DNA of 45,792 nucleotides from a virus: positions 1 through 45,792 of the IMG/VR virus record IMGVR_UViG_3300045988_123020; one strand, given 5' to 3'. The translations under genes were made by a program, and so were the position numbers. Below are positions 1,632 to 45,792 of this stretch, one piece after another; the first letter of the stretch is position 1; each line of letters starts with the position of its first letter. A model generated the notes under the pieces. It made no database searches, had not been told where the DNA came from, and worked only from the letters and a program-made list of their open reading frames with translations.

Positions 1632-1715
1632 GCCCGTGTGGTGGAATTTGGTAGACACACCACACTCAAAATGTGGCGCCCTTGGGGCGTGCGGGTTCGA
1701 GTCCCGCCACGGGTA
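1632..1715 (+). tRNA. tRNA-Leu (anticodon CAA), type II with long variable arm
   Basis: Hand-folded cloverleaf. Acceptor GCCCGTG/CACGGGT (G1:U72). Anticodon stem CCACA/TGTGG with loop CTCAAAA (anticodon CAA). Variable arm CGCCCTTGGGGCGT. T-arm GCGGG-TTCGAGT-CCCGC. Discriminator A. No encoded CCA. Confidence 0.85.
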
Positions 1716-1833
1716 CTTGTGTGTTGATGGGGGTTGCGGATGCGTCTTACCCCACCAGGTGTGGGTGGAGCATCTGGGGCCGTGCTTGTTCGTTTGGTTG
1801 GCGGCACGGCCCCTGCCTTTTCGTTGTGTGTAG

Positions 1834-4548
1834 TTGTGTGTTGATGGGTTGGGGGGTGTCCTGGTTTTGGTCGATGTTGATAAGGCTGGGACACCCCCTG
1901 GTGGTCCCTATGATGGTTTGTCTGATGAGGAGATTCTTGAGCGTTTCGCGCCGGTGCATTATGGGCCGACGTGGGAGCGCGGCGATGATGGCCGATTCGT
2001 TTTGCCTGAGCATACGTTGGGCTGGGAGATTGCTCGGTGGTGTTCGGATTATTTGGAGCCGCTTGGTGCTGATCAGGAGGTGTTTGAGTTTACCTTGGAG
2101 CAGTTGCGTATCGTCCTGTGGTGGTATGCGGTTGATGATGAGGGTAAGTTCATTTACCGGCGTCGCGGGGTGCTGCAGCGGATTAAGGGTTGGGGTAAGG
2201 ATCCGTTGCTTGCGGTGTTGTGTTTGGTTGAGGCGTTTGGTCCGTCCCGGTTTGCTGGGTGGGGTTCTGATGGTGAGCCTGTTGGGCGTCGGTGTCCGCA
2301 GGCGTTGGTGCAGATTTTCGCGTTGAAGCAGGAGCAAACTAGCAACACGTTCGATATGTTCCATGTGCTTGTTGGTGACAAGATGCGTGCGAAGTATGGC
2401 GCGGATGTGAAGCTGCAGATTGTGCGTGGTTGTAACAACACGGCGCGCATCGAGGTCAAGACGTCGTCGTTCCGTTCGACGGAGGGTAACCGTTGTACTT
2501 TCGCACTGCTCAATGAGGCGTTGGATGTTGATACGGTGATTCCGACTCCCGCTGGCGCGCGACGTATGGGTGATCTGGTCGCGGGCGATGAGGTGTATGG
2601 GCCTGATGGCGTGCCGGTGCGCGTGGTTGAGGCTAAGCCTGTTCAGGTTGGCCGTGATTGTTACCGCGTGACTGTTGGTGGCGTTGATTCGGTTGTTGCG
2701 TCGGATGGGCATTTGTGGATGACACGGGTTGCCAGTAGTGCGGCTAAGCCGCGTATTCGTTCGACGCGTGAGATGGTTGAGGATGGGCGTCGGTTTATGG
2801 TGCCTCGTTCTGGCCCGCGCGTTCTGCCTGATGCTGATCTTCCTGTTGATCCTTATGTGCTTGGTTATTGGCTGGGCGATGGGTCTACTGGCGATTGCAA
2901 TATTGCTGTCGGCTTGGAGGACGTGGACTGGGTGATGGGCGAGTTTGAGCGTCGCGGTTATCCGTTGCATCGTGTCGGCAATTCCGGCACGCCTCGCCTG
3001 AGCTTTTCTGACCGTGCTGGGTTTGGTGCTGATATGGGGCCGGATCATGCGAGGGTTTTCCGTACTCTCCCGTGTTACTGGGATAAGCACATTCCTGATG
3101 TGTTCATGGAGTCGAGTGTTGAGCAGCGGTTGGACCTGTTGCGCGGTTTGATGGATTCTGATGGGTGTGCTCGCGCGGATGGTTACGCCGTGTTTGTTGG
3201 GTGTGATCGTTTGGCTGAGCAGGTGTTTGAGCTTGCGGCGTCGTTGGGGTTCTTGCCTCATAAACGTTACGTGGCGGATGAGCGTTCGCGCGATGGTGGC
3301 TATTGGCATGTGGGATTCATGATCGAGGGCCTTAACCCGTTCCTGATGCCTCGCAAGGCTGAGCGTTCGCCGTTACGTGAGCGCCGCGAGTGGGTGTCGA
3401 TTGACATTGAGCAGGTGGAGTCTCGCCCTGTTCGCTGTATTGCGGTGGATAATGAGTCGCACTTGTTCCAGGCGAGCCACTGCGTCGTTACCCATAACAC
3501 GCAGCACTGGTTGCCGCAGAACAATGGGCAGAAGCTAAAGAATACGGTCGAGGGTAATACGACGAAGATGAAGTCGCGTTACCTTGCTATTACGAACGCG
3601 TATAAGCCTGGTGAGGGCAGCGTGGCTGAGGACGACCGTGAGGCGTATATGAAGTCGTTGGAGGGCCTGACGACGGAGACTGACGTGTTCTATGACTCGT
3701 TGGAGGCCCCGGATGATACGCCGTTGGATGAGCGCGTGTTTAAGGTTTTGTATAACGCTGTGCGTGGGGATTCGGTGTGGTGTGATGCTGATGAGGCGTG
3801 GCGGTCGGTGTTGAATCCGTCGCGTCCGACGTCGGAGTCTCGCCGCATGTACTTGAATCAGGTGTGGCAACCGGAGGGGAACTTGTTCTCGTCGGCTGAG
3901 TGGAAGCGTATTGAGCGTAAGGCGACGTTGGAGCCTGGTGACCGGATCGTGCTCGGGTTCGATGGTGGTAAGTCTGACGACTCTACGGCGCTTATTGCTA
4001 TCCGCGTGTCGGATGGGCTGATGGTGCCGTTGCTGCTTGAGGAGAAGCCGTTGGACCTTGCGGGCGACTGGGAGGTTGATCGTGAGCGCGTGGACTCTAT
4101 GGTCCACAGGTGCTTCCGTGACTACGACGTTGTTGGGTTCTATGCGGACGTCGCGTTGTGGGAGTCGTACATTCATGAGTGGACTTTGGATTATGGTGAG
4201 CGGCTTGTGGCTCGCGCGTCGGACAGGGGTCCGATTGCGTGGGATATGCGTGGTTCTCGTAAGCGGACGGTGGGCCTGCATGAGGCGTTTATGGCGGCGA
4301 TTCTTGATGGCCGGGTGTCGCATGGTGGTTCGCGTGAGTTGGCGGCGTCGTTCCGTCGTCACGTGTTGAATGTGTTGCGTAAGGATACGCCGTATGGCGT
4401 GTCGTTTATGAAGGCTGGCCGCGAGTCGAAGAAGAAGATTGACATGTATGCGGCGGCAATGTTGGCGTTTGGTGCTTATCGGGATTATCAGACTGAGATG
4501 GCGTCGAGGCCGGTTGCGAAGGCTGGGGGGTCGTTCTTCCGGTTCTGA
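1834..4548 (+). CDS. terL: terminase large subunit, intein-containing precursor (exteins 1834-2517 and 3499-4548)
   Basis: The 904-aa ORF sits between terS and the portal gene. The N-extein ends in the Walker-B-like TFALLNE and the C-extein resumes TQHWLPQNNG. The C-terminal nuclease-type region includes GDRIVLGFDGGKSDDSTALIAI. The start could be slightly downstream (TTG 1867). Confidence 0.9.
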   Translation: MCVDGLGGVLVLVDVDKAGTPPGGPYDGLSDEEILERFAPVHYGPTWERGDDGRFVLPEHTLGWEIARWCSDYLEPLGADQEVFEFTLEQLRIVLWWYAVDDEGKFIYRRRGVLQRIKGWGKDPLLAVLCLVEAFGPSRFAGWGSDGEPVGRRCPQALVQIFALKQEQTSNTFDMFHVLVGDKMRAKYGADVKLQIVRGCNNTARIEVKTSSFRSTEGNRCTFALLNEALDVDTVIPTPAGARRMGDLVAGDEVYGPDGVPVRVVEAKPVQVGRDCYRVTVGGVDSVVASDGHLWMTRVASSAAKPRIRSTREMVEDGRRFMVPRSGPRVLPDADLPVDPYVLGYWLGDGSTGDCNIAVGLEDVDWVMGEFERRGYPLHRVGNSGTPRLSFSDRAGFGADMGPDHARVFRTLPCYWDKHIPDVFMESSVEQRLDLLRGLMDSDGCARADGYAVFVGCDRLAEQVFELAASLGFLPHKRYVADERSRDGGYWHVGFMIEGLNPFLMPRKAERSPLRERREWVSIDIEQVESRPVRCIAVDNESHLFQASHCVVTHNTQHWLPQNNGQKLKNTVEGNTTKMKSRYLAITNAYKPGEGSVAEDDREAYMKSLEGLTTETDVFYDSLEAPDDTPLDERVFKVLYNAVRGDSVWCDADEAWRSVLNPSRPTSESRRMYLNQVWQPEGNLFSSAEWKRIERKATLEPGDRIVLGFDGGKSDDSTALIAIRVSDGLMVPLLLEEKPLDLAGDWEVDRERVDSMVHRCFRDYDVVGFYADVALWESYIHEWTLDYGERLVARASDRGPIAWDMRGSRKRTVGLHEAFMAAILDGRVSHGGSRELAASFRRHVLNVLRKDTPYGVSFMKAGRESKKKIDMYAAAMLAFGAYRDYQTEMASRPVAKAGGSFFRF
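2518..3498 (+). mobile_element. class-3 intein (327 aa) with embedded LAGLIDADG homing endonuclease
   Basis: Starts ALDVDTVIPTPAG (Ala1, no N-terminal nucleophile). Block B is SDGHLW (Trp at B:12). Block F is RPVRCIAVD (Cys at F:4). Block G is VVTHN followed by +1 Thr, giving the WCT triplet. Two LAGLIDADG motifs are present: LGYWLGDGS and LLRGLMDSDG. Confidence 0.85.
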
Positions 4549-31378: not shown

Positions 31379-32542
31379 CTACTTATTGCCAGTTTTATCT
31401 TCAGTTGCGTGCGGCACGATATTGATGACTGTTTCGGGGATTGCGCCGTCGAGCTTCACGTAGTAGGCGATGGTGGTTTGCACGTTCGCGTGCGCAAGCC
31501 AGGCGGACGCGGCCCTTGCTCCGTAAGTGTCAAAGATGATGGAGCCTACGGTTTTCCGTAGCGTGTGAATTGACAGGTCCGCGTATCCGAGGCCGGTCAG
31601 GACTTTCCTACACTCAACGTACATGTGCGGCTTTGTGTGGGGGAATAGCCGGTCTCCCGAGACTTGTTCGCGTCTGCGTCGCAATCGGTCCACCTGCCAT
31701 TGGGGGAGCGGCTTGGGCGGGTAGGTGCGGCGCGTTTTCTTGGAGGCGATGCTGAGGAGCGTTCCTGTTTGCAGGTCGATGTCGTTCCATGTGAGGGCGA
31801 ATAGTTCTCCACCGCGCACGCCAATGTGGGATTCTAGGATGAGCGCGTCAATGCATGACTGGACGACGGGGCGTGGGGCTGGATGGGTTTCGAGTTGGTT
31901 GACCAGGGTTGCGAGGTCGTTTGGGGAGAGGATTCGGTCAGGGTCGAGGCGCGCTTTAACGGCGCTGATTGGCTCTGTGGTGGGAGGCTTGACGACCGTG
32001 AGTGGGGTGAGGCTGATCGAGTCGGCTGCGAGCTTAAAAGCGACCCCTAAGCCTGCCTTGAGCGCCGTTCTGGCACGAACTTCCCCGTGCTTGAGGGCGT
32101 ATACGTCGTACAGTTGCGTGAGGGCGCTAGTGGTGATGGCTTCACTGATGGGGAGTTTCCACCATTCGGGCGAGAGGGTTTTGCTGTGTGCTACGGCGCT
32201 TTCGTATGCGCGCTGGGAGCCGTCTGTGAGGCGTTGGTGGCGCTGGGAGTGAACGTATGCGTCCCAGACTTCCGTTGGGGTGCTTTGTGGGGTGATGACG
32301 CCTGACGCGTGTTTGGCGTCGTCAATGTACTGTTTGGCTTGTTGTTCGCATTGTCGGATGGCTTGGCGTTTGCTGGTTGCGATGGTGCGGATGCGTTTGG
32401 GGGTATTGCCGCGTCGGCCTACGAGGACGCTTGCCCTCCAGTGGGTACCGTCCGGGTTAACGACCCATGCTTTGCCTTGTTTGGATACTCGGGTGGTGGT
32501 GATGTTGCCTAGTTCGCCTGGTTGGAGTGCGCGGCGTGCCAT
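31379..32542 (-). CDS. int: tyrosine integrase
   Basis: ELFALTWNDIDLQTG, IHTLRKTVGS (HxxR) and LAHANVQTTIAYYVK (catalytic Tyr region). There is an N-terminal SAM-like arm domain. RBS AGGAAGG precedes ATG 32542 (ORF open to 32632). Confidence 0.9.
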   Translation of the reverse strand: MARRALQPGELGNITTTRVSKQGKAWVVNPDGTHWRASVLVGRRGNTPKRIRTIATSKRQAIRQCEQQAKQYIDDAKHASGVITPQSTPTEVWDAYVHSQRHQRLTDGSQRAYESAVAHSKTLSPEWWKLPISEAITTSALTQLYDVYALKHGEVRARTALKAGLGVAFKLAADSISLTPLTVVKPPTTEPISAVKARLDPDRILSPNDLATLVNQLETHPAPRPVVQSCIDALILESHIGVRGGELFALTWNDIDLQTGTLLSIASKKTRRTYPPKPLPQWQVDRLRRRREQVSGDRLFPHTKPHMYVECRKVLTGLGYADLSIHTLRKTVGSIIFDTYGARAASAWLAHANVQTTIAYYVKLDGAIPETVINIVPHATEDKTGNK

Positions 32543-32581
32543 GCTTGAGGGGCCTTCCTGCGTGAGGTGAGTGTTGGCCGC

Positions 32582-32587
32582 ATTGTA
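32582..32587 (-). promoter_or_regulatory. candidate int promoter, extended -10 (TGcTACAAT)
   Basis: The minus strand reads ATGCTACAATGCGG about 35 nt upstream of the int ATG. It lies directly after the upstream terminator. Confidence 0.35.
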
Positions 32588-32612
32588 GCATGTGTTGCCT
32601 GTTTTGTGGGTA

Positions 32613-32703
32613 GCAAAAAGCGGCCCCCTCACAGGAGAGAACCGTTACTCTCACCACCCCCGTGTGGGGCGGGTTGAGTGTTGGTCTCCCTTGTGAGGGG
32701 GCC
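32613..32703 (-). terminator. intrinsic terminator closing the leftward small-gene operon, upstream of int
   Basis: A 19-bp imperfect inverted repeat (32622-32640 / 32685-32703) has an internal CCCC-ACAC-GGGG(G) sub-hairpin. On the minus strand it is followed by GCTTTTTG. Confidence 0.6.
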
Positions 32704-36618: not shown

Positions 36619-36924
36619 GTTCGTGTTTTTCCTTTCATTTCTGGGACTGTTTGGGGCGCTCCGTCCTTGTTTCAACGTTTGAGGTATTGCGCATGAGCTG
36701 CGCAGAGTGCTACACTCAACCCTGTTACAACAAGGCACTGACACGCCCCCTGGTTTGTCTGTTTTCTCTGTTGAACGTTCTGTGTAGGGGAAGCCCGCAC
36801 TGGACAGGCTAATTGCAAGCGCATCTGACAGGGTCGCCCCGCCAGGCGGACTGTTGGACGGTCTCTCACACTCGCCGCAAAGCGCTTAGGCCAGTCCGGG
36901 GCGGGCTTCCCTGTTTCTTCCGAG

Positions 36925-37392: not shown

Positions 37393-37428
37393 GAAAAATC
37401 TTAGTGGCAAAACGTGCTTTCTGCCACT
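37393..37428 (-). terminator. intrinsic terminator after the 37439 gene
   Basis: On the minus strand, AGTGGCA-GAAAGCACGTTT-TGCCACT is followed by AAGATTTTTC. Confidence 0.5.
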
Positions 37429-39256: not shown

Positions 39257-39576
39257 GCACGCGAGGGCAATTCTGCGCTCAGCATGTCCCGCCGCCCCTG
39301 CCAATTGCGCACGACAGGGTCGTTCACCAGCTCAAGATGGTCGGTCAGGTCGTCCACCATGAGGGCGCAGTCAGTCAGCGCTATTTGCAGGTCGCCATAC
39401 GCCTCGCAAGCGCGGTCAGCGTCGGGCGAATCGCCTAAGCCCTTGCACATCTCAGGGAATCCACTCAAGCCCACAATGTCTGCGCGGGCTTGAATCATGT
39501 CGGAAAATTCCCAAAGAAACTCGCAAAAGTCGCGCAACGCTGTGATATGCTCAGCGCCGCCATCCAGCTTTGTCAT
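39253..39576 (-). CDS. hypothetical protein
   Basis: RBS GGAAGGAG precedes ATG 39576 (ORF open to 39633). Acidic, Cys-containing helical protein. Confidence 0.55.
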   Translation of the reverse strand: MTKLDGGAEHITALRDFCEFLWEFSDMIQARADIVGLSGFPEMCKGLGDSPDADRACEAYGDLQIALTDCALMVDDLTDHLELVNDPVVRNWQGRRDMLSAELPSRA

Positions 39577-39599
39577 TACGCTCCTTCCGTTTGTCTTGG

Positions 39600-39833
39600 T
39601 CACGCGGCGAGGCCCCACAGGCCGCCGTCGCACACCGCCAACGCCAACACGCGGCGGGCGGCTGTCTTGAAGCCCTCACGCGTCACCGGCACGCCCTCAA
39701 GCCGCGTCCAACGCCCCGGAGCATCCGGGTCAGGGCCAATCATCCAGTCCGCCGCGTCGGCCCACACGCCGTCACGCATGGGGATACAGGGCTGGTAGGG
39801 GGCGGGGGGAATCCAGTTGTCATGCGCGCGCAT
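39600..39833 (-). CDS. hypothetical protein
   Basis: ATG 39833 overlaps the 3' end of the upstream gene by 14 nt (ORF open to 39956). Confidence 0.45.
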   Translation of the reverse strand: MRAHDNWIPPAPYQPCIPMRDGVWADAADWMIGPDPDAPGRWTRLEGVPVTREGFKTAARRVLALAVCDGGLWGLAA

Positions 39834-40185
39834 CGTCAACCACCTCACACAGCTCACCTGCGGCAACCAGGTCGCACAGCCAACGCCAACACTTGTGCTT
39901 GTAGTCGCTGGCCTGCGCCCAAAGCGCCATGTGAGGAGAGATTCGCACCCCCGCAACCCGAATGGGCGGGTGCGTTGCGTCGAGCATTTCGTTAAACGCG
40001 TCGAATCCGTCAGTCACGTCGAACAGGTATCCGTCACGGTCAACCCATCGCGCCCAGAGGGGGGCGTCGCCCAGCTCCGAGCGCGTGAACTGCGTGCGCT
40101 CGTCCCACAGGCGCACCATTTCGGCGCGCGCATCTTCCTTGACCTGTCCGCCCGATTCGACGGTTGTCATGGGGAAAGTATTCAT
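39820..40185 (-). CDS. hypothetical protein, WA-YVDR paralog family
   Basis: RLWDERTQFTRSELGDAPLWARWVDRDGYLF ... AAGELCEVVDD. Preceded by tRNA-like element E1. Confidence 0.65.
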   Translation of the reverse strand: MNTFPMTTVESGGQVKEDARAEMVRLWDERTQFTRSELGDAPLWARWVDRDGYLFDVTDGFDAFNEMLDATHPPIRVAGVRISPHMALWAQASDYKHKCWRWLCDLVAAGELCEVVDDARA

Positions 40186-40236
40186 GTTGTTTCACTCTCG
40201 TTTCATGTCAGGACAAACCACTCTGATTGTCCTCGC

Positions 40237-40286
40237 TCCCAGGGCGGGACTCGAACCCGCCATTACCTCACCACTCAAGCCTGGGA
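40237..40286 (-). ncRNA. tRNA-like element E1 (acceptor + D-arm + T-arm, no anticodon arm)
   Basis: Minus sense: UCCCAGG-CUU GAGUGGU GAG-GUAAUG-GCGGG UUCGAGU CCCGC-CCUGGGA. The T-arm 17-mer is identical to that of the tRNA-Leu at 1691-1707. Confidence 0.7.
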
Positions 40287-40296
40287 AACCTGTCCA

Positions 40297-40653
40297 TCAG
40301 CGCCAATCGTCAGGAGAATCCACAACCGCGCGCAGCTCGCCCGCCTCAACACGCTTCACAATAGACGCCGTAATCGCGCGGGCCGTCAGTAGCGGGGAGA
40401 GGGCAAGCATTAGTTCCCCCGCCCCCAGCTTGTCGTCACCCTTGCCGCCCTGCAGCCATTCCTCCGCAAGGGCCTCAACCGAATACGCCGTACCCTCACG
40501 ATCAACGAACTGCGCCCACTCAGGCGCGTTCATCGCGTCGCGGACCACATACTCCTGCGCGTCCCACCCGTCTCGGAATGCCTGCTCCTGCTCGGGCGTC
40601 ATGTACTCGCTTGCTTTGGCCGTCTTGGCCCTTGTCGTATCACGCTGCATCAT
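40297..40653 (-). CDS. hypothetical protein, WA-YVDR paralog family (alternative start 40671)
   Basis: RDGWDAQEYVVRDAMNAPEWAQFVDREGTAY ... EAGELRAVVDS. Start chosen by analogy with the purine-rich RBS of sister cassettes. Confidence 0.6.
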   Translation of the reverse strand: MMQRDTTRAKTAKASEYMTPEQEQAFRDGWDAQEYVVRDAMNAPEWAQFVDREGTAYSVEALAEEWLQGGKGDDKLGAGELMLALSPLLTARAITASIVKRVEAGELRAVVDSPDDWR

Positions 40654-40713
40654 TCTTTTCTCACTTTCCATTGTCAGCGTTGACACCCCGCCCGGTTTGG
40701 CTGGGGCGCTCGC

Positions 40714-40765
40714 TCTCAGGGCCGGGATCGAACCGGCACGACGCTCACCATGCAAGCCCCTGAGA
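40714..40765 (-). ncRNA. tRNA-like element E2 (no anticodon arm)
   Basis: UCUCAGG-G-GCUU GCAUGGU GAGC-GUCGU-GCCGG UUCGAUC CCGGC-CCUGAGA. Confidence 0.7.
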
Positions 40766-40779
40766 AAACCATGCGCACG

Positions 40780-41457
40780 CTACTGTGCGCCGCCAATCAC
40801 CGTAATGTCACCCACAACCCTCACGCCCGGCGTGAGTATGTGAACAGCCGACGATGCCGGACCCTCAACACGCGTGTCATACTTTGCGTACACGGTCACA
40901 TGATCGTGCGCGTACACCTCACCGCCGTCACTGTAGACAACCACCTCATCATGGGCGGTCACATCCACATCACCCGAGATTTCAACAACCACCTGGTGAC
41001 GCGCAATTACGGACGCCTCATACCGTGCAACCACGTGGGCGCCACTTACTGCTGTCACCGTAGAATTGTCAAACGCGAACAGTGGGCACACCCCATGTGC
41101 TCTCACGGCCGCCCTGTCCCACACTTGGCCGACCGCGTAATATCCGCACTCTCCGCTAGAGTCGTCATGCCAGTCAACTTTCGCATAGTCCGTCGCGTAC
41201 ACGGTCGCCTCATCCTGCGCGTCAACAATGCTATGCCCGCGCGCAGTCAGGCGAGACGTCCCGTATACGATCACGCGGGACTCGCCGCACGCCTCAACGA
41301 TATGCCCACGTGAATCGCCTACGAAAATGTAGTTCGGCATGTATTTGCCGGGGTTTGAGTGAATCTCAATCACCGTGTTATTGTCCGGTTCCGCCGCCAG
41401 AGCCGCGTCCAACTCGCCCTGGTTTGTCACGCGAACAACCTTGGTTTCGTCAATCAT
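40780..41457 (-). CDS. hypothetical beta-solenoid-like repeat protein
   Basis: Quasi-repeats of alternating V-x-V/A-x(2-4)-D/G read by eye (VTAVSGAHVVARYEASVIARHQVVVEISGDVDVTAHDEVVVYSDGGEVYAHDHVTVYAKYDTRV). ATG 41457 (ORF open to 41589). Confidence 0.6.
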   Translation of the reverse strand: MIDETKVVRVTNQGELDAALAAEPDNNTVIEIHSNPGKYMPNYIFVGDSRGHIVEACGESRVIVYGTSRLTARGHSIVDAQDEATVYATDYAKVDWHDDSSGECGYYAVGQVWDRAAVRAHGVCPLFAFDNSTVTAVSGAHVVARYEASVIARHQVVVEISGDVDVTAHDEVVVYSDGGEVYAHDHVTVYAKYDTRVEGPASSAVHILTPGVRVVGDITVIGGAQ

Positions 41458-41512
41458 CGTTCTGCCTCTCTGATTCCATGCATCCGAGGCGACCGCCTTG
41501 GTCGCCTGTCGC

Positions 41513-41567
41513 TCCCTGTGCCCGGATCGAACGGGCCATCTTTCACCCCCACCATTGGGGACAGGGA
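41513..41567 (-). ncRNA. tRNA-like element E3 (no anticodon arm)
   Basis: UCCCUGU-CCCC AAUGGU GGGG-GUGAAAGAUG-GCCCG UUCGAUC CGGGC-ACAGGGA. Confidence 0.7.
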
Positions 41568-41591
41568 AACCCACGCGCGTCACGCGCAAAG

Positions 41592-41966
41592 TCAGTCGCC
41601 ACTCATTGCGGCTTCCATCTCATCCGCCTCCCTGAGGGCTTCCTCCCACACGGCCACCGCGTCAGCCACCGCCTTAGCCACCGCCTCGTCTGGGGTCCGC
41701 TCGGCCGGGCCGCGCACGCCCGCATAAATCTCCTCGGGCCACTCCGAGCGGGGGATGAATCGCTCAACCTCCGGCCAATCCTGGCTATTGTCCGTAGACG
41801 CGTACCGGCCCGTCACGCCGGACCCACGAACAGCGAGCGTCACTCGCACGCCATCCTGGTAGTCCACGTACACCTCGGCAGTCACGCCCTCGGCAACCTG
41901 CGCCGTAATCACGGGAACAACGTCGCCGTAGTATCCGCGCGGCGCTTCCCACTTGTAGTCACTCAT
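41592..41966 (-). CDS. hypothetical protein
   Basis: RBS AAGGGAGAGAG precedes ATG 41966 (ORF open to 41996). Acidic C-terminal helix. Confidence 0.6.
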   Translation of the reverse strand: MSDYKWEAPRGYYGDVVPVITAQVAEGVTAEVYVDYQDGVRVTLAVRGSGVTGRYASTDNSQDWPEVERFIPRSEWPEEIYAGVRGPAERTPDEAVAKAVADAVAVWEEALREADEMEAAMSGD

Positions 41967-42019
41967 TGTCGCTCTCTCCCTTGTTTTCTGTTTCACGCCC
42001 CCACTTTGGGGCGCATCGT

Positions 42020-42068
42020 TCGCGGGGCCGGAATCGAACCAGCCTGTTACTCACCCTTAAGCCCGCGA
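42020..42068 (-). ncRNA. tRNA-like element E4 (no anticodon arm)
   Basis: UCGCGGG-CUU AAGGGU GAG-UAACAG-GCUGG UUCGAUU CCGGC-CCCGCGA. The T-stem U:G pair is possible only in the minus-sense RNA. Confidence 0.7.
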
Positions 42069-42119
42069 AAACCACGCGTGTCACACATCACGCACTAGGA
42101 TACCAAGTACCCACCGCCG

Positions 42120-42452
42120 CTAGTCCGCGTAATACAACGGGAACAAGTCGCCACGACTCAGCCGCTCCTCAATCAGAGCGTCCACCCCCATCGCAAACAC
42201 GTCCGGTTGATACCAGCGCATCATCGACCCCACATCATCCGGGCCGCGCTCATTCTGCTCATACTCCCACTTAAGCTCGAAACCCCAGCGGTCCCACAAG
42301 CGGCCCGACGCATCAACCCACTCATAATTAGACCGCACGCCGCTAATGCCAACCTGGCAGTACAGGAAGTAACCCGGAAAGTCATCCGACGCAAGCGCCG
42401 CCTCAACAACCGCGCGCACTTCCTCAGCGGTCATCGTGTCAGAACACATCAC
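42120..42452 (-). CDS. hypothetical protein, FPGFFL paralog pair
   Basis: DDFPGYFLYCQVGISGVRSNYEWVDASGRLWDR aligns with the upstream neighbour. GTGA overlap. Confidence 0.6.
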   Translation of the reverse strand: MMCSDTMTAEEVRAVVEAALASDDFPGYFLYCQVGISGVRSNYEWVDASGRLWDRWGFELKWEYEQNERGPDDVGSMMRWYQPDVFAMGVDALIEERLSRGDLFPLYYAD

Positions 42453-42799
42453 GCCACACCCCCATACCTCACGGGAATCAGCACGCCCTGCGATTCAAGC
42501 CGGGCAATATAGATGCTCACGCCCGCGTCAAACCCATCCGGGTCAATCTTGCGCGACGCGCCACCCAACAGGTCACCACCGCCCAAACCGGCCGCCGCGC
42601 CCATGTAATCCAACTCAGCCTCATACTCAACCGCCAAGTCCACACGCGAACGGGGATACCCATCCGCATCAACCCAGCAATACGCCGGGTCAGACAGGCC
42701 CAACTCACAAGCCAGGAAGAAACCGGGAAACGACTCATCCTCACGCGCCTGTTCAACCAGGTCACGCAGTTCATCCGTGCCAATCTCGCACATGGTCAC
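42449..42799 (-). CDS. hypothetical protein, FPGFFL paralog pair
   Basis: ESFPGFFLACELGLSDPAYCWVDADGYPRSR. GTGA overlap with the upstream gene. Confidence 0.6.
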   Translation of the reverse strand: MTMCEIGTDELRDLVEQAREDESFPGFFLACELGLSDPAYCWVDADGYPRSRVDLAVEYEAELDYMGAAAGLGGGDLLGGASRKIDPDGFDAGVSIYIARLESQGVLIPVRYGGVA

Positions 42800-43143
42800 G
42801 CCTCACACTCATCAACAAGGCGAACCAGTTCGCCATCCCACACGCACCCGGCAACCCACGATTCAAACTCTGCAAAGCATCGGGCGGGGTCAGCAAACAG
42901 ACACGCCGAAACCATCGCTTCGCTGTGAAAGGCGGTCACAAGCGCCACGTACTCGCCAAACAGGCCCGCACGCGTCCACGCCCCGCCATTCCTGTCCACG
43001 TAGTCAGCCCACGCGGGCGCGTCCACGCTCTCACGCAACAGGCGACCGCATCGGCCCCACCAATCGCGCAATGCCTTGCCGTTCTCGTCAGTCAGCCAAT
43101 CAGATGCGGGCGCATAGTCCTCGCGTCGCGCAGCCGTAGTCAT
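42796..43143 (-). CDS. hypothetical protein, WA-YVDR paralog family
   Basis: RDWWGRCGRLLRESVDAPAWADYVDRNGGAW ... WDGELVRLVDE. Preceded by E5. Confidence 0.65.
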   Translation of the reverse strand: MTTAARREDYAPASDWLTDENGKALRDWWGRCGRLLRESVDAPAWADYVDRNGGAWTRAGLFGEYVALVTAFHSEAMVSACLFADPARCFAEFESWVAGCVWDGELVRLVDECEA

Positions 43144-43195
43144 AATAGAAACCTCATCTCACATTTCCAATAGGCCACCGCCTTGGTAGCCCCGC

Positions 43196-43255
43196 CCCTT
43201 GCCCAGGAATCGAACCCAGGACCCCCACACGGGGGCGCAACCAACTCGCCAAGGG
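43196..43255 (-). ncRNA. tRNA-like element E5 (with a 5-bp/4-nt mini-hairpin in place of the anticodon arm)
   Basis: CCCUUGG-CGAGUUGGUUGCG-CCCCC GUGU GGGGG-UC-CUGGG UUCGAUU CCUGG-GCAAGGG. The 7:66 pair is mismatched and the T-stem has two G:U pairs. Confidence 0.6.
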
Positions 43256-43266
43256 TGAGGCCCTAA

Positions 43267-43596
43267 TCAGTCCTCAATACGACGCAAGTCGCCGTCCTGA
43301 ACGCGCATGTCAATCCAATCCAACATTCCGCAGCGGAACGCGACGGGATCAACGTCGGCAAGCACCTCGCCCGCGTCATACTCATAACCGCACACGCTAA
43401 CCATTCCGTACAAGTCGCCCAGAAGGTCCCTGTACGCATCTTCCATGCCGTCCGAATAGAGCTCGCCATACTCATCCACATAATCAGCCCAATCGGGCAC
43501 GCCGCCCAACTCGCTACGCGTGAACGAATCGCGCTCATCCCACGCTGCTTGCATCGCTCCCAGTGCCTCGCCCGTGACCTTGGTAATGAACGTCAT
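43267..43596 (-). CDS. hypothetical protein, WA-YVDR paralog family
   Basis: AAWDERDSFTRSELGGVPDWADYVDEYGELY ... QDGDLRRIED. Preceded by E6. Confidence 0.65.
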   Translation of the reverse strand: MTFITKVTGEALGAMQAAWDERDSFTRSELGGVPDWADYVDEYGELYSDGMEDAYRDLLGDLYGMVSVCGYEYDAGEVLADVDPVAFRCGMLDWIDMRVQDGDLRRIED

Positions 43597-43657
43597 TGTC
43601 TTGCCTCTTTCTCAATTGATCTGCGATAGGACAAACGCACGCCACGTTTGCCCCCGC

Positions 43658-43707
43658 TCCCTGACTGGGAATCGAACCCAGCTCCATACTCGCCATTAAG
43701 TCAGGGA
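43658..43707 (-). ncRNA. tRNA-like element E6 (no anticodon arm)
   Basis: UCCCUGA-CUU AAUGGC GAG-UAUGGAG-CUGGG UUCGAUU CCCAG-UCAGGGA. Confidence 0.7.
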
Positions 43708-43717
43708 AACCACGCCG

Positions 43718-44230
43718 CTAGGCAACCGACGAAACAGCCGGGGGGATCAGGACATTCACGTACCAACGGCCCGACGCAACCTCAAGGCCCTCGGGGTCCA
43801 AAGCCAGCGCCCCCTCGGGATACCAGCCATCCATACAATCCGCCCCGCTCACAACCGTCCATCCAAGCTCACGCGCCGCCCGCTCAATCGCATCAGGAAA
43901 CGCGTTGAAAACCATCTCACCGACAGCATCCAAACGAGCATTGCCCTGCGCAGCGCGCCGCGAGTCAGGGTCCCAATCATCCCGGCCCCACACGGACGGA
44001 TCGTACTCAGGGCGTCCGCACTCATCCCATGCGGTGAAAACCCCGCGCCATGTGTGCGTGTCCCAATACGTCTGCAAAACGCACTCATCCCACTCAACAG
44101 TGCCCGGCATGGTCGCATCGTCATAGAACCAGCGAACCAGCTCGGCAAGCGTCCAATACCGCCGCGCCCGCTCAATCGCCGCGTCCGCACAACGCGCCGC
44201 CGCCGCCAAACCCTCAACATGCGTAGCCAT
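43718..44230 (-). CDS. hypothetical Trp/Asp-rich protein, first gene of the leftward operon
   Basis: RBS GAGAGG precedes ATG 44230 (ORF open to 44239). Protein-like sequence (WDECVLQTYWDTHTWRGVFTAWDECGRPEYDPSVWGRDDWDPD). Confidence 0.6.
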   Translation of the reverse strand: MATHVEGLAAAARCADAAIERARRYWTLAELVRWFYDDATMPGTVEWDECVLQTYWDTHTWRGVFTAWDECGRPEYDPSVWGRDDWDPDSRRAAQGNARLDAVGEMVFNAFPDAIERAARELGWTVVSGADCMDGWYPEGALALDPEGLEVASGRWYVNVLIPPAVSSVA

Positions 44231-44310
44231 AATAAACACCTCTCACAATTCCAGATAGGCCCCCACCCTGGGGGCCACGGTTAGCGCCGCCCATCGTCGG
44301 GCGCGCCCGT

Positions 44311-44384
44311 AGGCATCGCAGGAATCGAACCCACCCGCGCGCCCCCGCTGCTAACGAGGCCCGCACGACTCACCAGAGATGCCC
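44311..44384 (-). ncRNA. tRNA-like element E7 (74 nt, full tRNA length, non-canonical cloverleaf)
   Basis: Acceptor GGGCAUC/GAUGCCU (G1:U72). T-arm GUGGG UUCGAUU CCUGC. A 5+5-bp interrupted stem is capped by the 7-nt loop UUAGCAG (U33/A37-like). The D-arm is reduced to CUC-UGGU-GAG. Confidence 0.6.
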
Positions 44385-45005
44385 TAGTCCAATAACGACG
44401 CGCGCCTAATTAACTGACCGGGAAGCTCAAGGACAGTCCTAACGGCAGCGATATAAGCGATAGGCCGCGACCCGCGCCCCTAAGGCGGGGCCGTCGCCAA
44501 AACCTCGGAATCGCTGCGATAGGCAAGCGCGCGCCAAATAGGCGAAAAATAAACCACTGTGTAATTCACAAAAAACAACCAACGCACACCCAATCCAACG
44601 AATCAGCAAGGCCGGGGGGCCTCTCCGCTCGCTCTCTCAGGGGCGATGACATCAGTCTAGACCCGGCGCTAGCCTTACGCAAGCCCGGCGCCGCATCGTG
44701 AGACGTCAAACAACCACCCTCCGAGACAACCGCAGACTCACGCCCCAAACTGTCCGCCGGCATTGTCCGCCGGCCGCGAACTGTCAAACAGCAATTAGGG
44801 GCCATCGCGGGGGCAATCAATCAAATGAGACGCTAATCACATTACACGTGAATTAGCCCTGCCCAAACGCACACATACGCGCGGCTAGCACATGGCGAAG
44901 CTATTGTCAATTCGCTTTATGGAATAGTGACACAATAGACAAACGGAATCGCACATACCATACGCAAGCGAATCGCGCAAGCGCATTAATTGAATAGCGA
45001 CATAA

Positions 45006-45104
45006 CAATTAAATAGCAATTAGACCGCAATTACAAAAACAATTCTTTGCGATAAATAAAGCAGCTATCTAAGCAATTAACCAAGTCAATTAACCCAGCA
45101 ATTA
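45006..45104. repeat. cluster of six exact CAATTA motifs (plus variants) in the AT-rich control region
   Basis: CAATTA occurs at 45006, 45017, 45028, 45074, 45087 and 45099, and CAATTC at 45039. The surrounding sequence is non-coding. Confidence 0.7.
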
Positions 45105-45517
45105 AATACAAGGTGGGCGCGGCGACTAGACAGCCTGAGAATCGCGTCTGGAATTGTATCCGAATAGGGGGCCATAACCCCCAAGAATGCGCGCCTGAAT
45201 ACCGCCCAGTCATAGCAAAAAATATCCGCGACGGATCACAAGCTTTCCATGTCAACCAATTCGCCACGCCGCGCGCCGCTTGACGGCTCATGGTAACACG
45301 CCCCTCCCCGGACTCGCAACCCCGGTCGCAGTCCATGCCCCCGGCTCTTGGCAAGGGGGTTTCTAGCGAGTGGCTTGTTTCTGCGGATTTGGACGCGATG
45401 CCATGATCGCCCCCGCGTGACATGCGTCTCATTATTGGAAAAAGTGAACAGTGAGCGGGGTTTCAAAAACAGACTATATAGTGAGAGGGTAAAAGCCCTT
45501 GGGGGGTAGGGGGGCAA

Positions 45518-45538
45518 GTATATATATAAATATATATC
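45518..45538. repeat. TA-rich tract (GTATATATATAAATATATATC), candidate DNA-unwinding element
   Basis: Read directly from the sequence. It is the only pure A/T run of this length in an otherwise GC-rich genome. Confidence 0.6.
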
Positions 45539-45608
45539 TTAAGTCTTAAGCTAGTGTTTAAAGCTCTCTATCTCAAGTTTTCTAGTTCACGACTTATGGC
45601 TTATAGTT

Positions 45609-45692
45609 CATAGTTCCTATCTCATAGCTCATGGTTTCTATCTTATAGCTCATAGTTCCTATCTCATAGCTCATGGTTTCTATCTTATAGTT
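45609..45692. repeat. two tandem copies of a 42-bp repeat (plus a partial degenerate copy upstream)
   Basis: CATAGTTCCTATCTCATAGCTCATGGTTTCTATCTTATAGCT is repeated at 45609 and 45651 (last 2 nt differ). Confidence 0.85.
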
Positions 45693-45792
45693 CTGTCGTT
45701 GCTTTAAGTCTTAAGACGTAATTGGTATTGATTCTGATTCTGTCGTTGCTTTAAGTCTTAAGACGTAATTGGTATTGATTCTGATTCTGTCG
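45691..45792. repeat. right-end 47-bp tandem repeat (2 full units plus an 8-nt partial), continuous with the left-end copies
   Basis: TTCTGTCGTTGCTTTAAGTCTTAAGACGTAATTGGTATTGATTCTGA is present at 45691-45737 and 45738-45784, followed by TTCTGTCG. Each unit contains the palindrome GTCTTAAGAC. Confidence 0.9.

Follow-up and report, generated by a model that had tools for sequence, protein, structure and literature searches.

tRNA-like elements with conserved flanks at the gene junctions of an uncultured phage operon, and their possible use as processing signals

Does a tRNA-like element that recurs at one gene junction after another in a phage operon, each time in similar surroundings, mark the places where the transcript is cut into separate messages? 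The question is raised by the window, by which we mean the whole stretch of 45,792 nucleotides (nt) analyzed here (IMG/VR virus record IMGVR_UViG_3300045988_123020, positions 1 to 45,792). The window is a near-complete siphophage-like genome of 45.8 kb with a GC content of 0.60, in which the plus strand carries the structural and replication genes and a leftward operon of about 8 kb runs on the minus strand from about 45432 to a terminator at 37428-37403. Seven T-loop motifs on the minus strand, from 44330 to 40247, mark seven elements, E1 to E7, with E7 at the operon head; unless another strand is given, the features below lie on the minus strand and are read in that sense. A first-pass annotation, made from the letters alone, had proposed that the elements share a layout of upstream stop-codon hairpin, leader, tag, downstream hairpin and ribosome-binding site (RBS) that serves mRNA processing. 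We find that the elements are a family of structured, sense-strand, intergenic mimics of the top half of tRNA, and that their flanks are under selection and anchored at the element borders. We consider it somewhat better than an even bet that host RNase P together with RNase Z (or RNase E) excises the elements and leaves structured mRNA ends, so that the elements punctuate the operon.

Structured elements at the gene junctions

The elements are tRNA top halves of 49-56 nt (E1, E2, E3, E4 and E6 span 50-56 nt), made of a 7-bp acceptor stem, a 4-bp D-like arm, a linker of 5-9 nt and a 5-bp T stem, with no anticodon arm and with an interval of only 18-24 nt from the acceptor stem to the T stem. 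In an alignment of 40 sequences from related loci (A4), the T loop UUCRANY and the GG of the D-like loop are invariant. All seven window elements but E3, which differs at one position, have the exact T-arm motif GTTCGANYCC. A covariance model built from A4 and run on the window found E1-E4 and E6 at 34.6-64.7 bits and E5 weakly, and nothing else. The cores lie at 40236-40286 (E1, 51 nt, 60.6 bits), 40713-40765 (E2, 53 nt, 43.5 bits), 41512-41567 (E3, 56 nt, 34.6 bits, E = 1e-7), 42019-42068 (E4, 50 nt, 63.8 bits) and 43657-43707 (E6, 51 nt, 64.7 bits, E = 2e-16). The discriminator, position 73, is G in E1 (40236), E2 (40713), E3 (41512) and E6 (43657) and A in E4 (42019), and it is followed by CGA in E1-E4 and by CGG in E6. 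The D-like arm of E3 is longer than in the others (CCCC-AAUGGU-GGGG).

From 44400 to 40186, each non-overlapping gene junction has one element, and every long spacer that separates small accessory genes has an element on its sense strand. We fetched 39 related loci through homologues of genes B and G; two of these duplicate a third contig, which leaves 37 distinct loci. In the related loci, the median distance from the stop codon to the first nucleotide of the element (+1) is 15 nt, and that from N73 to the start codon is 52 nt. The eight-sequence alignment of paralogues (A1) was too divergent for metagenome and genome scans, and an alignment of orthologues (A2) was used instead. The covariance model found 222 copies in 38 sources, 100% of them on the gene strand, with 7-10 copies per genome in the promoter-proximal part of the accessory-gene operon. 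The elements occur in at least about 100 uncultured phage contigs.

The fold is borne out by covariation. Both partners have changed in 10 of the 16 pairs tested in the 40-sequence alignment (117 cells), with a covariation score of 0.587 compared with 0.216 for shuffles. The seed collection demanded paired acceptor and T stems, and the percentage of paired cells in those two stems is therefore by construction; the diversity of pair types is free of that demand, and the D-like stem, which was not used as a selection criterion, is paired in 95.6% of cells. RNAalifold recovered the element fold plus the downstream hairpin when no structure was supplied. G-U pairs are frequent in the stems of both elements and hairpins, which argues for RNA rather than duplex DNA as the form that matters.

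Standard searches gave little. ARAGORN and a gathering-score Rfam scan of the window called only a tRNA-Leu at 1632-1716 and none of E1-E7; an Rfam scan of 39500-45792 at E <= 10 gave no tRNA match for E1-E6; and the elements lie outside all Rfam families at gathering scores.

Two elements are divergent. E5 (43195-43254; model R1, 15.5 bits) has G73 at 43195 followed by CGG, and both its 5' end and its acceptor-stem register are uncertain by 1 nt. It represents a subtype that has, besides the acceptor stem, D-like arm and T arm, an additional mini-hairpin of 5 bp where the anticodon arm would be. Nearly all related loci have a single E5 orthologue, and covariation is seen in the mini-hairpin. 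E7 (44310-44384, A73 at 44310) is a cloverleaf-like element of 75 nt in which RNAalifold, applied to 13 orthologues, found covarying stems: a 7-bp acceptor stem, a 3-bp D-like arm, a long covarying central arm and a T arm. Its central loop UUAGCAG is identical in 11 of the 13 orthologues and the core UUAGCA is present in all 13, and the Rfam model for tRNA-Sec gives E7 only 18.4 bits (gathering score 47). A conserved block, CGCGCGUCGUUAUUGGACUA, lies directly 5' of E7 at 44385-44404; these 20 nt (CGCGCGTCGTTATTGGACTA) are largely kept in 21 related sequences, and the last 10 nt (GGACTAGGGC) served as a search anchor. It is a candidate promoter or primary-transcript 5' end.

Tags, hairpins and leaders around the elements

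Directly after the acceptor strand comes a short tag. As the first-pass annotation had it, the tag reads G-CGA in E1-E3, A-CGA in E4 and G-CGG in E5 and E6, and CCA is never encoded; E7 adds A-CGG. A hairpin follows, and all seven downstream hairpins that had been listed are present. In E1-E6 they begin 2-4 nt past the discriminator. The E1 hairpin, AGGACAA-(10-nt loop)-UUGUCCU (40210-40233, z = -1.4), starts 2 nt after G73 and is kept in orthologues. The hairpins of E2 (40684-40708, z = -2.6), E3 (AGGCGACC-AAGGC-GGUCGCCU, 41487-41507, z = -2.5), E4 (GCGCCCC-AAAGUG-GGGGCGU, 41995-42014, z = -3.4, starting 4 nt after A73), E5 (GGGCUACC-AAGGC-GGUGGCCU, 43172-43192, z = -2.45) and E6 (a 12-bp stem with loop GCG, 43628-43654, z = -2.6, 2 nt after G73) complete this set. 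At E7, the hairpin that had been listed, GGCCCCC-AGGGU-GGGGGCC (44258-44276), is the second of two predicted by folding; the first, at 44279-44308 right after the A-CGG tag, had been missed. Against dinucleotide shuffles, the downstream hairpins of the window have z values of -1.2 to -3.4, with p <= 0.023 in five of the seven.

The stems of these hairpins change while their pairing is kept. The E3 and E5 hairpins do share the loop AAGGC, as had been noticed, and differ in that one G-C pair is replaced by U-G; both are part of a 42-sequence alignment of 7-bp stems (A6), in which 99.3% of cells are paired and five of the seven pairs change on both sides. In a 24-orthologue alignment of the 12-bp E6-type hairpin (A5), 100% of cells are paired and 5 of the 12 pairs change on both sides. 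An AxxGU loop motif proposed for E4 and E7 did not survive the comparison with E4-type orthologues, the loops of which read AAAGUG, UAGGGU, AAAGC, AAUGCG, UAUGGU, UGG and CGG. As a separate observation, many downstream hairpins in both lineages of related contigs (the second is described below) have the apex ACC-A-N-GG-Y-GGU, for example at 41495-41499 and 43180-43184, and across the apex loop variants AAGGC, AUGGU, ACGGC and AGGGC the loop GG is kept while the stems vary.

Past the hairpin, about 45-60 nt from the element, there is an unstructured, purine-rich Shine-Dalgarno tract. These tracts are GGAAUUGUGAGAGG for gene A (44239-44252, start codon 44230-44228), GAGAAAGAGG for gene B (43604-43613, start codon 43596-43594), GGAAAUGUGAGAUGAGG for gene C (43152-43168, start codon 43143-43141), AAGGGAGAGAG for gene F (41972-41982, start codon 41966-41964), GGAAUCAGAGAGGCAGAA for gene G (41460-41477, start codon 41457-41455), GGAAAGUGAGAAAAGA for gene H (40654-40669, start codon 40653-40651) and GAAACGAGAGUGAAACAAC for gene I (40186-40204, start codon 40185-40183). 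They are 58-89% purine, which bears out the earlier description of a purine-rich RBS. Purine content in the RBS region is 72% compared with 53% for the other window genes, a contrast that is inflated because the rule used for choosing start codons required a Shine-Dalgarno-like word. A lacO-like string, GGAAUUGUGAG, in the RBS region of E7 lacks a dyad and, as such, is not conserved; we treat it as coincidental.

On the upstream side, a leader ending in (G)UGGUU(U) had been described for E1-E4 and E6. GGUU is indeed found in these five of the seven elements, the leaders read from the sequence being CAGGUU at E1 (40287-40292), AUGGUUU at E2 (40766-40772), GUGGGUU at E3 (41568-41574), GUGGUUU at E4 (42069-42075) and GUGGUU at E6 (43708-43713; G at -4 in 88% and U at -2 in 78% of the family). 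E5 and E7 have no such leader, the place of the GGUU before E7 being taken by the block at 44385-44404.

The earlier claim that the stop codon of the upstream gene lies in or next to a hairpin holds fully at E2 only. There the loop of the hairpin GCGCAC-AGUAGC-GUGCGC (40773-40790) contains the UAG (40782-40780) at which gene G really ends. At E3 the UGA in the loop of GCGCG-UGA-CGCGC (41575-41587) is a second in-frame stop (41582-41580), and the true stop of gene F, UGA 41592-41594, is 4 nt before the stem; orthologues have a hairpin round UGA or UAG in shifting registers. At E4 the hairpin GCGUG-AUGUGUGA-CACGC (42076-42093) is kept in orthologues and is not significant alone (z = -1.0), and the claim fails, the true stop of gene E (UAG, 42120-42122) being 26 nt upstream; the UGA codons of this hairpin together with UAG 42097-42095 close all three frames. 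The stops of gene A (UAG, 43718-43720) and gene H (UGA, 40297-40299) are each 10 nt before the +1 of E6 and E1, respectively, with no hairpin, and E5 is preceded by UGAUUAG (43263-43269), in which the stop of gene B (43269-43267) is joined by a second stop in another frame. None of the upstream hairpins in the window was individually significant against shuffles (z from +0.95 to -1.04).

Stops in several frames just upstream of the elements (UGAnUAG, UAGnUAG, UAG..UGA..UGA; in the window at 43263-43269, 42076-42097 and 41580-41594) are a wider pattern. At least two frames are closed in 42% of contexts in the lineage of the window (lineage 1) and in 89% of those in lineage 2, compared with 20% and 46% when shuffled. 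Such stops may be a barrier that keeps ribosomes of any frame out of the element.

The related loci allowed the flanks to be measured as a family. After removal of identical contexts, the lineage-1 set held 166-171 spacers. A downstream hairpin, defined by a stem score of at least 13 and a start no more than 7 nt from N73, is present in 83% of 166 non-identical spacers compared with 21% of shuffled sequences and 19% of random genomic windows. It starts 1-4 nt after N73 in 153 of the 166 contexts, and in about 95% of 254 contexts over both lineages. The first 40 nt downstream have a mean minimum free energy (MFE) of -14.7 kcal/mol compared with -9.3 for shuffled and -9.6 for random genomic sequence. 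Upstream, a hairpin ending within 10 nt of +1 is present in 72% of the 166 spacers compared with 31% and 26%, respectively. The stop codon is in the hairpin loop in 43 cases, overlaps the stem in 34 and is outside in 70, and the hairpin is absent in 19. A crude MFE on the upstream 40 nt gives little signal (-11.9 versus -10.9 kcal/mol), whereas the position-anchored stem test shows the enrichment. Column-wise counting of covariation was dropped for the upstream hairpins because in orthologues they shift register.

The conservation is focused at the element borders. In the lineage-1 trailer, the base at position 73 is always a purine (100%) and C occupies position 74 in 99% of contexts; G or U is found at position 75 in 92%, with C in 1%, and A or G at position 76 in 100%. 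Information content reaches 1.3 bits in the leader and 1.7 in the tag; it is about zero beyond -6 and at most 0.3 from +6. In segments aligned by blastn, identity is 84% for the element, 86% for the tag, 81% for the leader, 80% for the downstream hairpin and 75.5% for the RBS region, compared with 78-79% for codon positions 1 and 2 and 61% for position 3.

Lineage 2 is an independent replicate. A loose DNA pattern, TGGTGAGN{8,12}GGTTCGA, had given about 120 chance matches, none of them upheld by the covariance model, and a stricter pattern was used. The stricter pattern led to about 60 further viral contigs of about 50 kb each, with a GC content of 0.53, in which the covariance model upholds 97 matches at element scores of 55-67 bits. 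The neighboring proteins are 30-37% identical to those of the window, or their similarity is undetectable. Across 88 non-identical lineage-2 contexts, the tag is R-C-K-R, with C74 in 100% and ACGA in 58 of the 88. A downstream hairpin is present in 77% compared with 14% shuffled and 22% random, at an offset of 3-4 nt in 55 of 59, and an upstream hairpin in 79.5% compared with 19% shuffled and 33% random, ending 0, 1 or 4 nt before +1 in 59 of 65. Among the 62 such hairpins for which an upstream stop could be assigned, 25 have it in the loop and in 19 it overlaps the stem. Lineage-2 leaders read CAACU, GGGUA, AGACA and similar, not GGUU, and the leaders of both lineages have in common only a pyrimidine at -2 (96-100%) and a near absence of C at -1. 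Because the lineage-2 leaders differ, we take the layout to be conserved and the sequence GUGGUUU to be local to the lineage of the window.

The second lineage bears on two other explanations. One is that the flanks resemble each other through the shared ancestry of recent tandem duplicates, without selection. Genes B, C, H and I are paralogous and the E3 and E5 hairpins are clearly homologous, as this would predict, yet neighboring spacer positions are at background while leader, tag and stems have been retained, substitutions in the stems are compensatory, the flanks exceed third codon positions in identity, and the layout recurs in lineage 2 with different sequences. Ancestry alone is thus already largely refuted, and we regard it as extremely unlikely. 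The other explanation is that the hairpins are terminators, attenuators or pause sites that grade expression, the tRNA-like element being incidental. Hairpins do flank every element, and the E2 upstream hairpin, which is followed by AUGGUUUUCU, was marginally caught by a terminator scan. Against this, the scan found 9 terminator-like sites where shuffles led us to expect 8.6, the downstream hairpins are followed by UAUC, GACA or similar and not by U tracts, the lineage-2 upstream hairpins are followed by CAACU, A or CA, and the only canonical terminator is that of the operon end (37403-37428, a 10-bp stem and then AAGAUUUUUC). Promoters and terminators between cassettes were also not in excess over shuffles. 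We therefore hold a terminator role to be very unlikely.

From the alignment statistics against shuffles and random genomic windows in two lineages, we conclude that the flanks are more alike than random spacers would be, as had been supposed. The layout first described stands in its coordinates, tags, downstream hairpins and RBS, is weaker in its upstream hairpins and stop placement, and loses the AxxGU motif.

Excision by host enzymes and other readings

In the reading that we favor, the elements would be punctuation marks in the 8-kb operon. RNase P of the host would cut between -1 and +1 and RNase Z between R73 and C74, the alternative to RNase Z in an actinobacterial host being RNase E, and the operon transcript would be broken up into mRNAs that are monocistronic or short. 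At the end of the upstream mRNA there would be a hairpin and a tail of 0-9 nt, too short for 3' exonucleases, and the downstream mRNA would start with C-K-R, leaving 1-4 free nt before its hairpin. These hairpins could shield the newly made ends; alternatively, they could keep the folding of the element insulated and define where the cut falls, and they may narrow the single-stranded stretch around the scissile bond rather than block exonucleases. A ribosome terminating in the hairpin loop, about 15 nt from +1, would, we speculate, briefly open the hairpin. The excised RNA of about 50 nt would be a by-product or would have a second role.

Several features fit this reading. The elements present the surface by which RNase P, RNase Z and the CCA-adding enzyme recognize tRNAs, namely the 12-bp coaxial helix of acceptor and T stems and the elbow of D and T loops. 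A hairpin that begins 1-4 nt after N73 has the geometry required if a new 5' end lies at or next to C74. Position 75 is C in 0-1% of contexts in both lineages, and CCA is thus avoided, which fits RNase Z because CCA is an anti-determinant for this enzyme. C74 can pair in part with the L15 loop of RNase P RNA, and the near invariance of C74 is consistent with this. It is also consistent, following as it does the purines A72 and R73, with the preference of mycobacterial RNase E, which cuts RR|CNU (PMC10641625). No RNA-processing enzyme was found with Pfam among 49 window open reading frames (ORFs; most non-structural genes plus ORF 1834-4548), nor with NCBIfam, and PHROGs gave families of unknown function only; host enzymes are therefore implied. 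Pairing between -1 and N73 shows no clear avoidance of the kind expected from a constraint of the RNase P type: U(-1)/G73 occurs often, and U(-1)/A73 accounts for 26% in lineage 2.

Other points weigh against excision as the function. The cleavage itself is something that we infer. To our knowledge, the near-invariant C74 is not a determinant for RNase Z. The upstream hairpin is frequent and not universal, being absent from four of the seven window elements (E1, E5, E6 and E7). Some upstream hairpins end only 0-1 nt before +1, where they could hinder binding of the RNase P protein to the leader. Predicted accessibility of the RBS is equal in precursor and processed RNA, so a translational benefit of cutting is not evident, and we dropped unmasking of the RBS through cleavage as unsupported. 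In addition, the conservation of the acceptor stem, described below, exceeds what processing alone needs and hints at an additional, sequence-specific partner. Finally, in Mycobacterium smegmatis, the only actinobacterium for which we found such a test, a 5' double stem-loop did not stabilize a reporter and 5' structure did not correlate with half-life across the transcriptome (PMC11728522). Because of this result, the earlier description of the hairpins as classic stabilizers is unsafe for this host group, and a stabilizer role is uncertain.

The acceptor stem raises a different possibility, that the small RNA is the product. Here acceptor/T-arm mimics of about 50 nt, probably CCA-tailed, would titrate or inhibit a host factor that recognizes the acceptor end or elbow of tRNA, such as an enzyme of tRNA modification or maturation or an anti-phage toxin aimed at tRNA, and the flanks would only ensure clean release. 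C2-G71 and C4-G69 are invariant, U1-A72 is present in about 85-97% and the discriminator is always a purine, which gives the consensus UCCC...GGGA-R, a sequence that may resemble the acceptor ends of bacterial tRNA-Asn. This conservation beyond structural need, the invariance of the nucleotides that make tertiary contacts, the 7-10 copies per genome in promoter-proximal position, and element scores of 55-67 bits in lineage 2 where neighboring proteins are at most 37% identical would all be expected of such a product. What speaks against it is that no single-stranded motif outside the standard tRNA nucleotides is conserved and the linker is variable (A4 alignment), that the elements are always intergenic, one per junction, and never alone or in gene-free tandem arrays, that the mRNA-linked flanks (stop hairpin, 5'-end hairpin and RBS) are selected as strongly as the element, and that there is no candidate target. 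We judge this possibility unlikely. An array with two jobs, in which the elements are cut and at the same time yield CCA-tailed half-tRNAs of 50 nt as decoys or inhibitors of a host factor acting on or recognizing the acceptor end of tRNA, such as an anti-phage toxin that modifies or cleaves the tRNA 3' end, and in addition, since element types travel with cassettes, serve as points at which accessory genes are exchanged, appears rather doubtful to us.

Gene content between the elements varies among relatives, and this suggests still another reading, in which the elements are recombination linkers for homologous or integrase-mediated exchange of cassettes at tRNA-like sites, comparable to the boundary sequences of lambdoid phages or the attC sites of integrons, and the RNA features are secondary. 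One relative (L001/L007 4183-4290, compared with window 42068-41457) lacks gene F and has an E4-type element joined to an E3-type hairpin and gene G. In 66% of cases the type of the element goes with the upstream module and in 33% with the downstream one, the background being 6%, and breakpoints thus cluster at or just after the element. The phage also encodes a tyrosine integrase (31379-32632, minus strand, opposing the local trend; PF00589, E = 1.4e-10), and such enzymes commonly use tRNA-like sites. However, compensatory changes and many G-U pairs keep an RNA fold, and on one strand only, the loop nucleotides of the tRNA tertiary contacts are invariant, and DNA exchange has no use for the flanking hairpins or the C74 tag. 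No element adjoins the integrase gene, and mosaicism is an expected side effect of any conserved repeat, which is what it probably is at these elements. We consider the linker reading quite improbable as the function of the elements.

The phage and comparison with known systems

The phage is a temperate, uncultured siphophage of the Actinomyces type; that it is temperate follows from the integrase, although attP was not located. Its portal protein is 42% identical to portals of Streptomyces phages. Neither the region nor a lineage-2 locus had a nucleotide match among 50,697 phage records searched by megablast and blastn, and the sole relative in a genome collection is a contig binned as uncultured Actinomyces sp. 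Many related contigs bear sample ids in the style of the Human Microbiome Project (7000000...), and our reading of these ids is that the contigs come from human samples.

Of the neighboring genes, B (43267-43596), C (42796-43143), H (40297-40653) and I (39820-40185) are paralogues that encode small, acidic, tryptophan-rich proteins with the motif PxWAxYVDxxG, and gene B has profile matches only to PHROG families of unknown function. Genes D and E are similar to each other and share the motif (S/D)FPG(F/Y)FL. No cassette protein matched a named family in Pfam or NCBIfam, and PHROGs gave unknown-function families only. The genuine tRNA-Leu(CAA) at 1632-1716 (plus strand; found by ARAGORN and Rfam) lies upstream of ORF 1834-4548, does not encode CCA, has the trailer A-CUUG, again with C74, and is kept in eight related loci. 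ORF 1834-4548 (plus strand, 904 amino acids), at the position expected of the terminase and without a Pfam or NCBIfam match, may be two genes or a divergent terminase. A terminator-like site at 36897-36913 on the plus strand faces the operon terminator. G far exceeds C on coding strands, with a GC skew of 0.2-0.35 over 1-34000 (plus strand) and of -0.2 to -0.28 in the leftward operon, and the skew (1-34000 plus, 40000-44000 minus) aided the assignment of gene strands.

In the open-access literature, searched in full text, we found no description of such elements in phages or in Actinomyces, and the elements are invisible to ARAGORN and Rfam. Processing punctuation by tRNA-like elements is of a known type; its probable appearance in a phage operon, with dedicated flanking hairpins, is what is new here. 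Should the predicted cuts take place, we would know of no earlier case of systematic tRNA-style punctuation in an operon of a bacterial virus. The phage would be borrowing RNase P and RNase Z or RNase E, enzymes that the host cannot lose, and would turn one transcript into separately stable messages by means of a minimal, anticodon-less tRNA mimic and dedicated end structures. Were the two-job array true, it would be a phage-borne system of tRNA-shaped cassettes. More than 250 natural variants in two lineages could be used to probe what actinobacterial RNase P, RNase Z and RNase E require, and to ask whether terminal hairpins protect actinobacterial mRNA, as was not the case in M. smegmatis (PMC11728522). 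They would also offer compact natural parts of about 130 nt, each with an insulator, a cleavage site and an RBS, for multi-gene expression in high-GC Gram-positive bacteria.

Five known systems can be set beside these elements. The YrlA RNAs, non-coding RNAs that also occur in some actinophages, have tRNA-like modules made of acceptor, D and T arms (PMC4201824). In these modules they resemble the phage elements, which differ in being multi-copy, intergenic and inside an mRNA operon. YrlA has no decoding anticodon arm, is a single gene beside rsr (Ro60) and has a Ro-binding helix. We found no YrlA-type Rfam match, and a TROVE/Ro60 domain is absent among the 49 Pfam-scanned window ORFs, which cover most non-structural genes and ORF 1834-4548.

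Stem-loops at the 5' end stabilize E. coli ompA and B. subtilis ermC and aprE mRNAs, and RiboJ, a synthetic insulator, combines a self-cleaving ribozyme, a hairpin and an RBS. The phage layout is like these in placing a hairpin no more than 4 nt from a putative 5' end with an open RBS downstream; RiboJ differs in that it cuts itself, whereas in the phage a tRNA mimic would direct a host enzyme of tRNA processing to the cut.

The tRNA-like 3'-end module of MALAT1 (mascRNA) and MEN-beta, represented by RF01684, was reportedly described by Wilusz et al. in 2008. In the MALAT1 module, RNase P makes the upstream 3' end, which is protected by a structure upstream, and RNase Z frees the small RNA. 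Like the phage elements, this is a small tRNA-like RNA with no proper anticodon; unlike them, it is eukaryotic, nuclear and single-copy and relies on triple-helix protection. The RF01684 model aligned weakly with E5 over its full length (18.6 bits, E = 4.7) and matched no other element; the gathering score being 42.5 bits, E5 falls far short of membership in that family.

The tRNA punctuation of animal mitochondrial transcripts is said to go back to Ojala et al. in 1981. There, as in the phage, nearly every ORF junction has a tRNA-shaped signal whose excision would define the mRNAs, but the mitochondrial signals are real decoding tRNAs that lack flanking hairpins. Without an anticodon arm, the phage elements are unable to decode.

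Together with mitochondrial tRNA punctuation and the MALAT1 module, the closest analogues are the t-elements of plant mitochondria, where RNase P and RNase Z cut at mRNA ends and the element borders coincide with the 5' and 3' ends of mRNAs (PMC1920247, Forner et al. 2007). Like the phage elements, t-elements have non-canonical tRNA-like folds with an acceptor stem and a GGUUCRANYCC T arm, and they are placed at mRNA borders within longer transcripts. The plant t-elements are scattered single relics in an organelle genome, whereas the phage elements are a uniform covarying family with 7-10 members per operon, from which the anticodon arm is cleanly absent and in which leader, tag and two hairpins are conserved. 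Processing in the phage would also differ from that in plants in using the RNA-based RNase P of bacteria together with RNase Z or RNase E.

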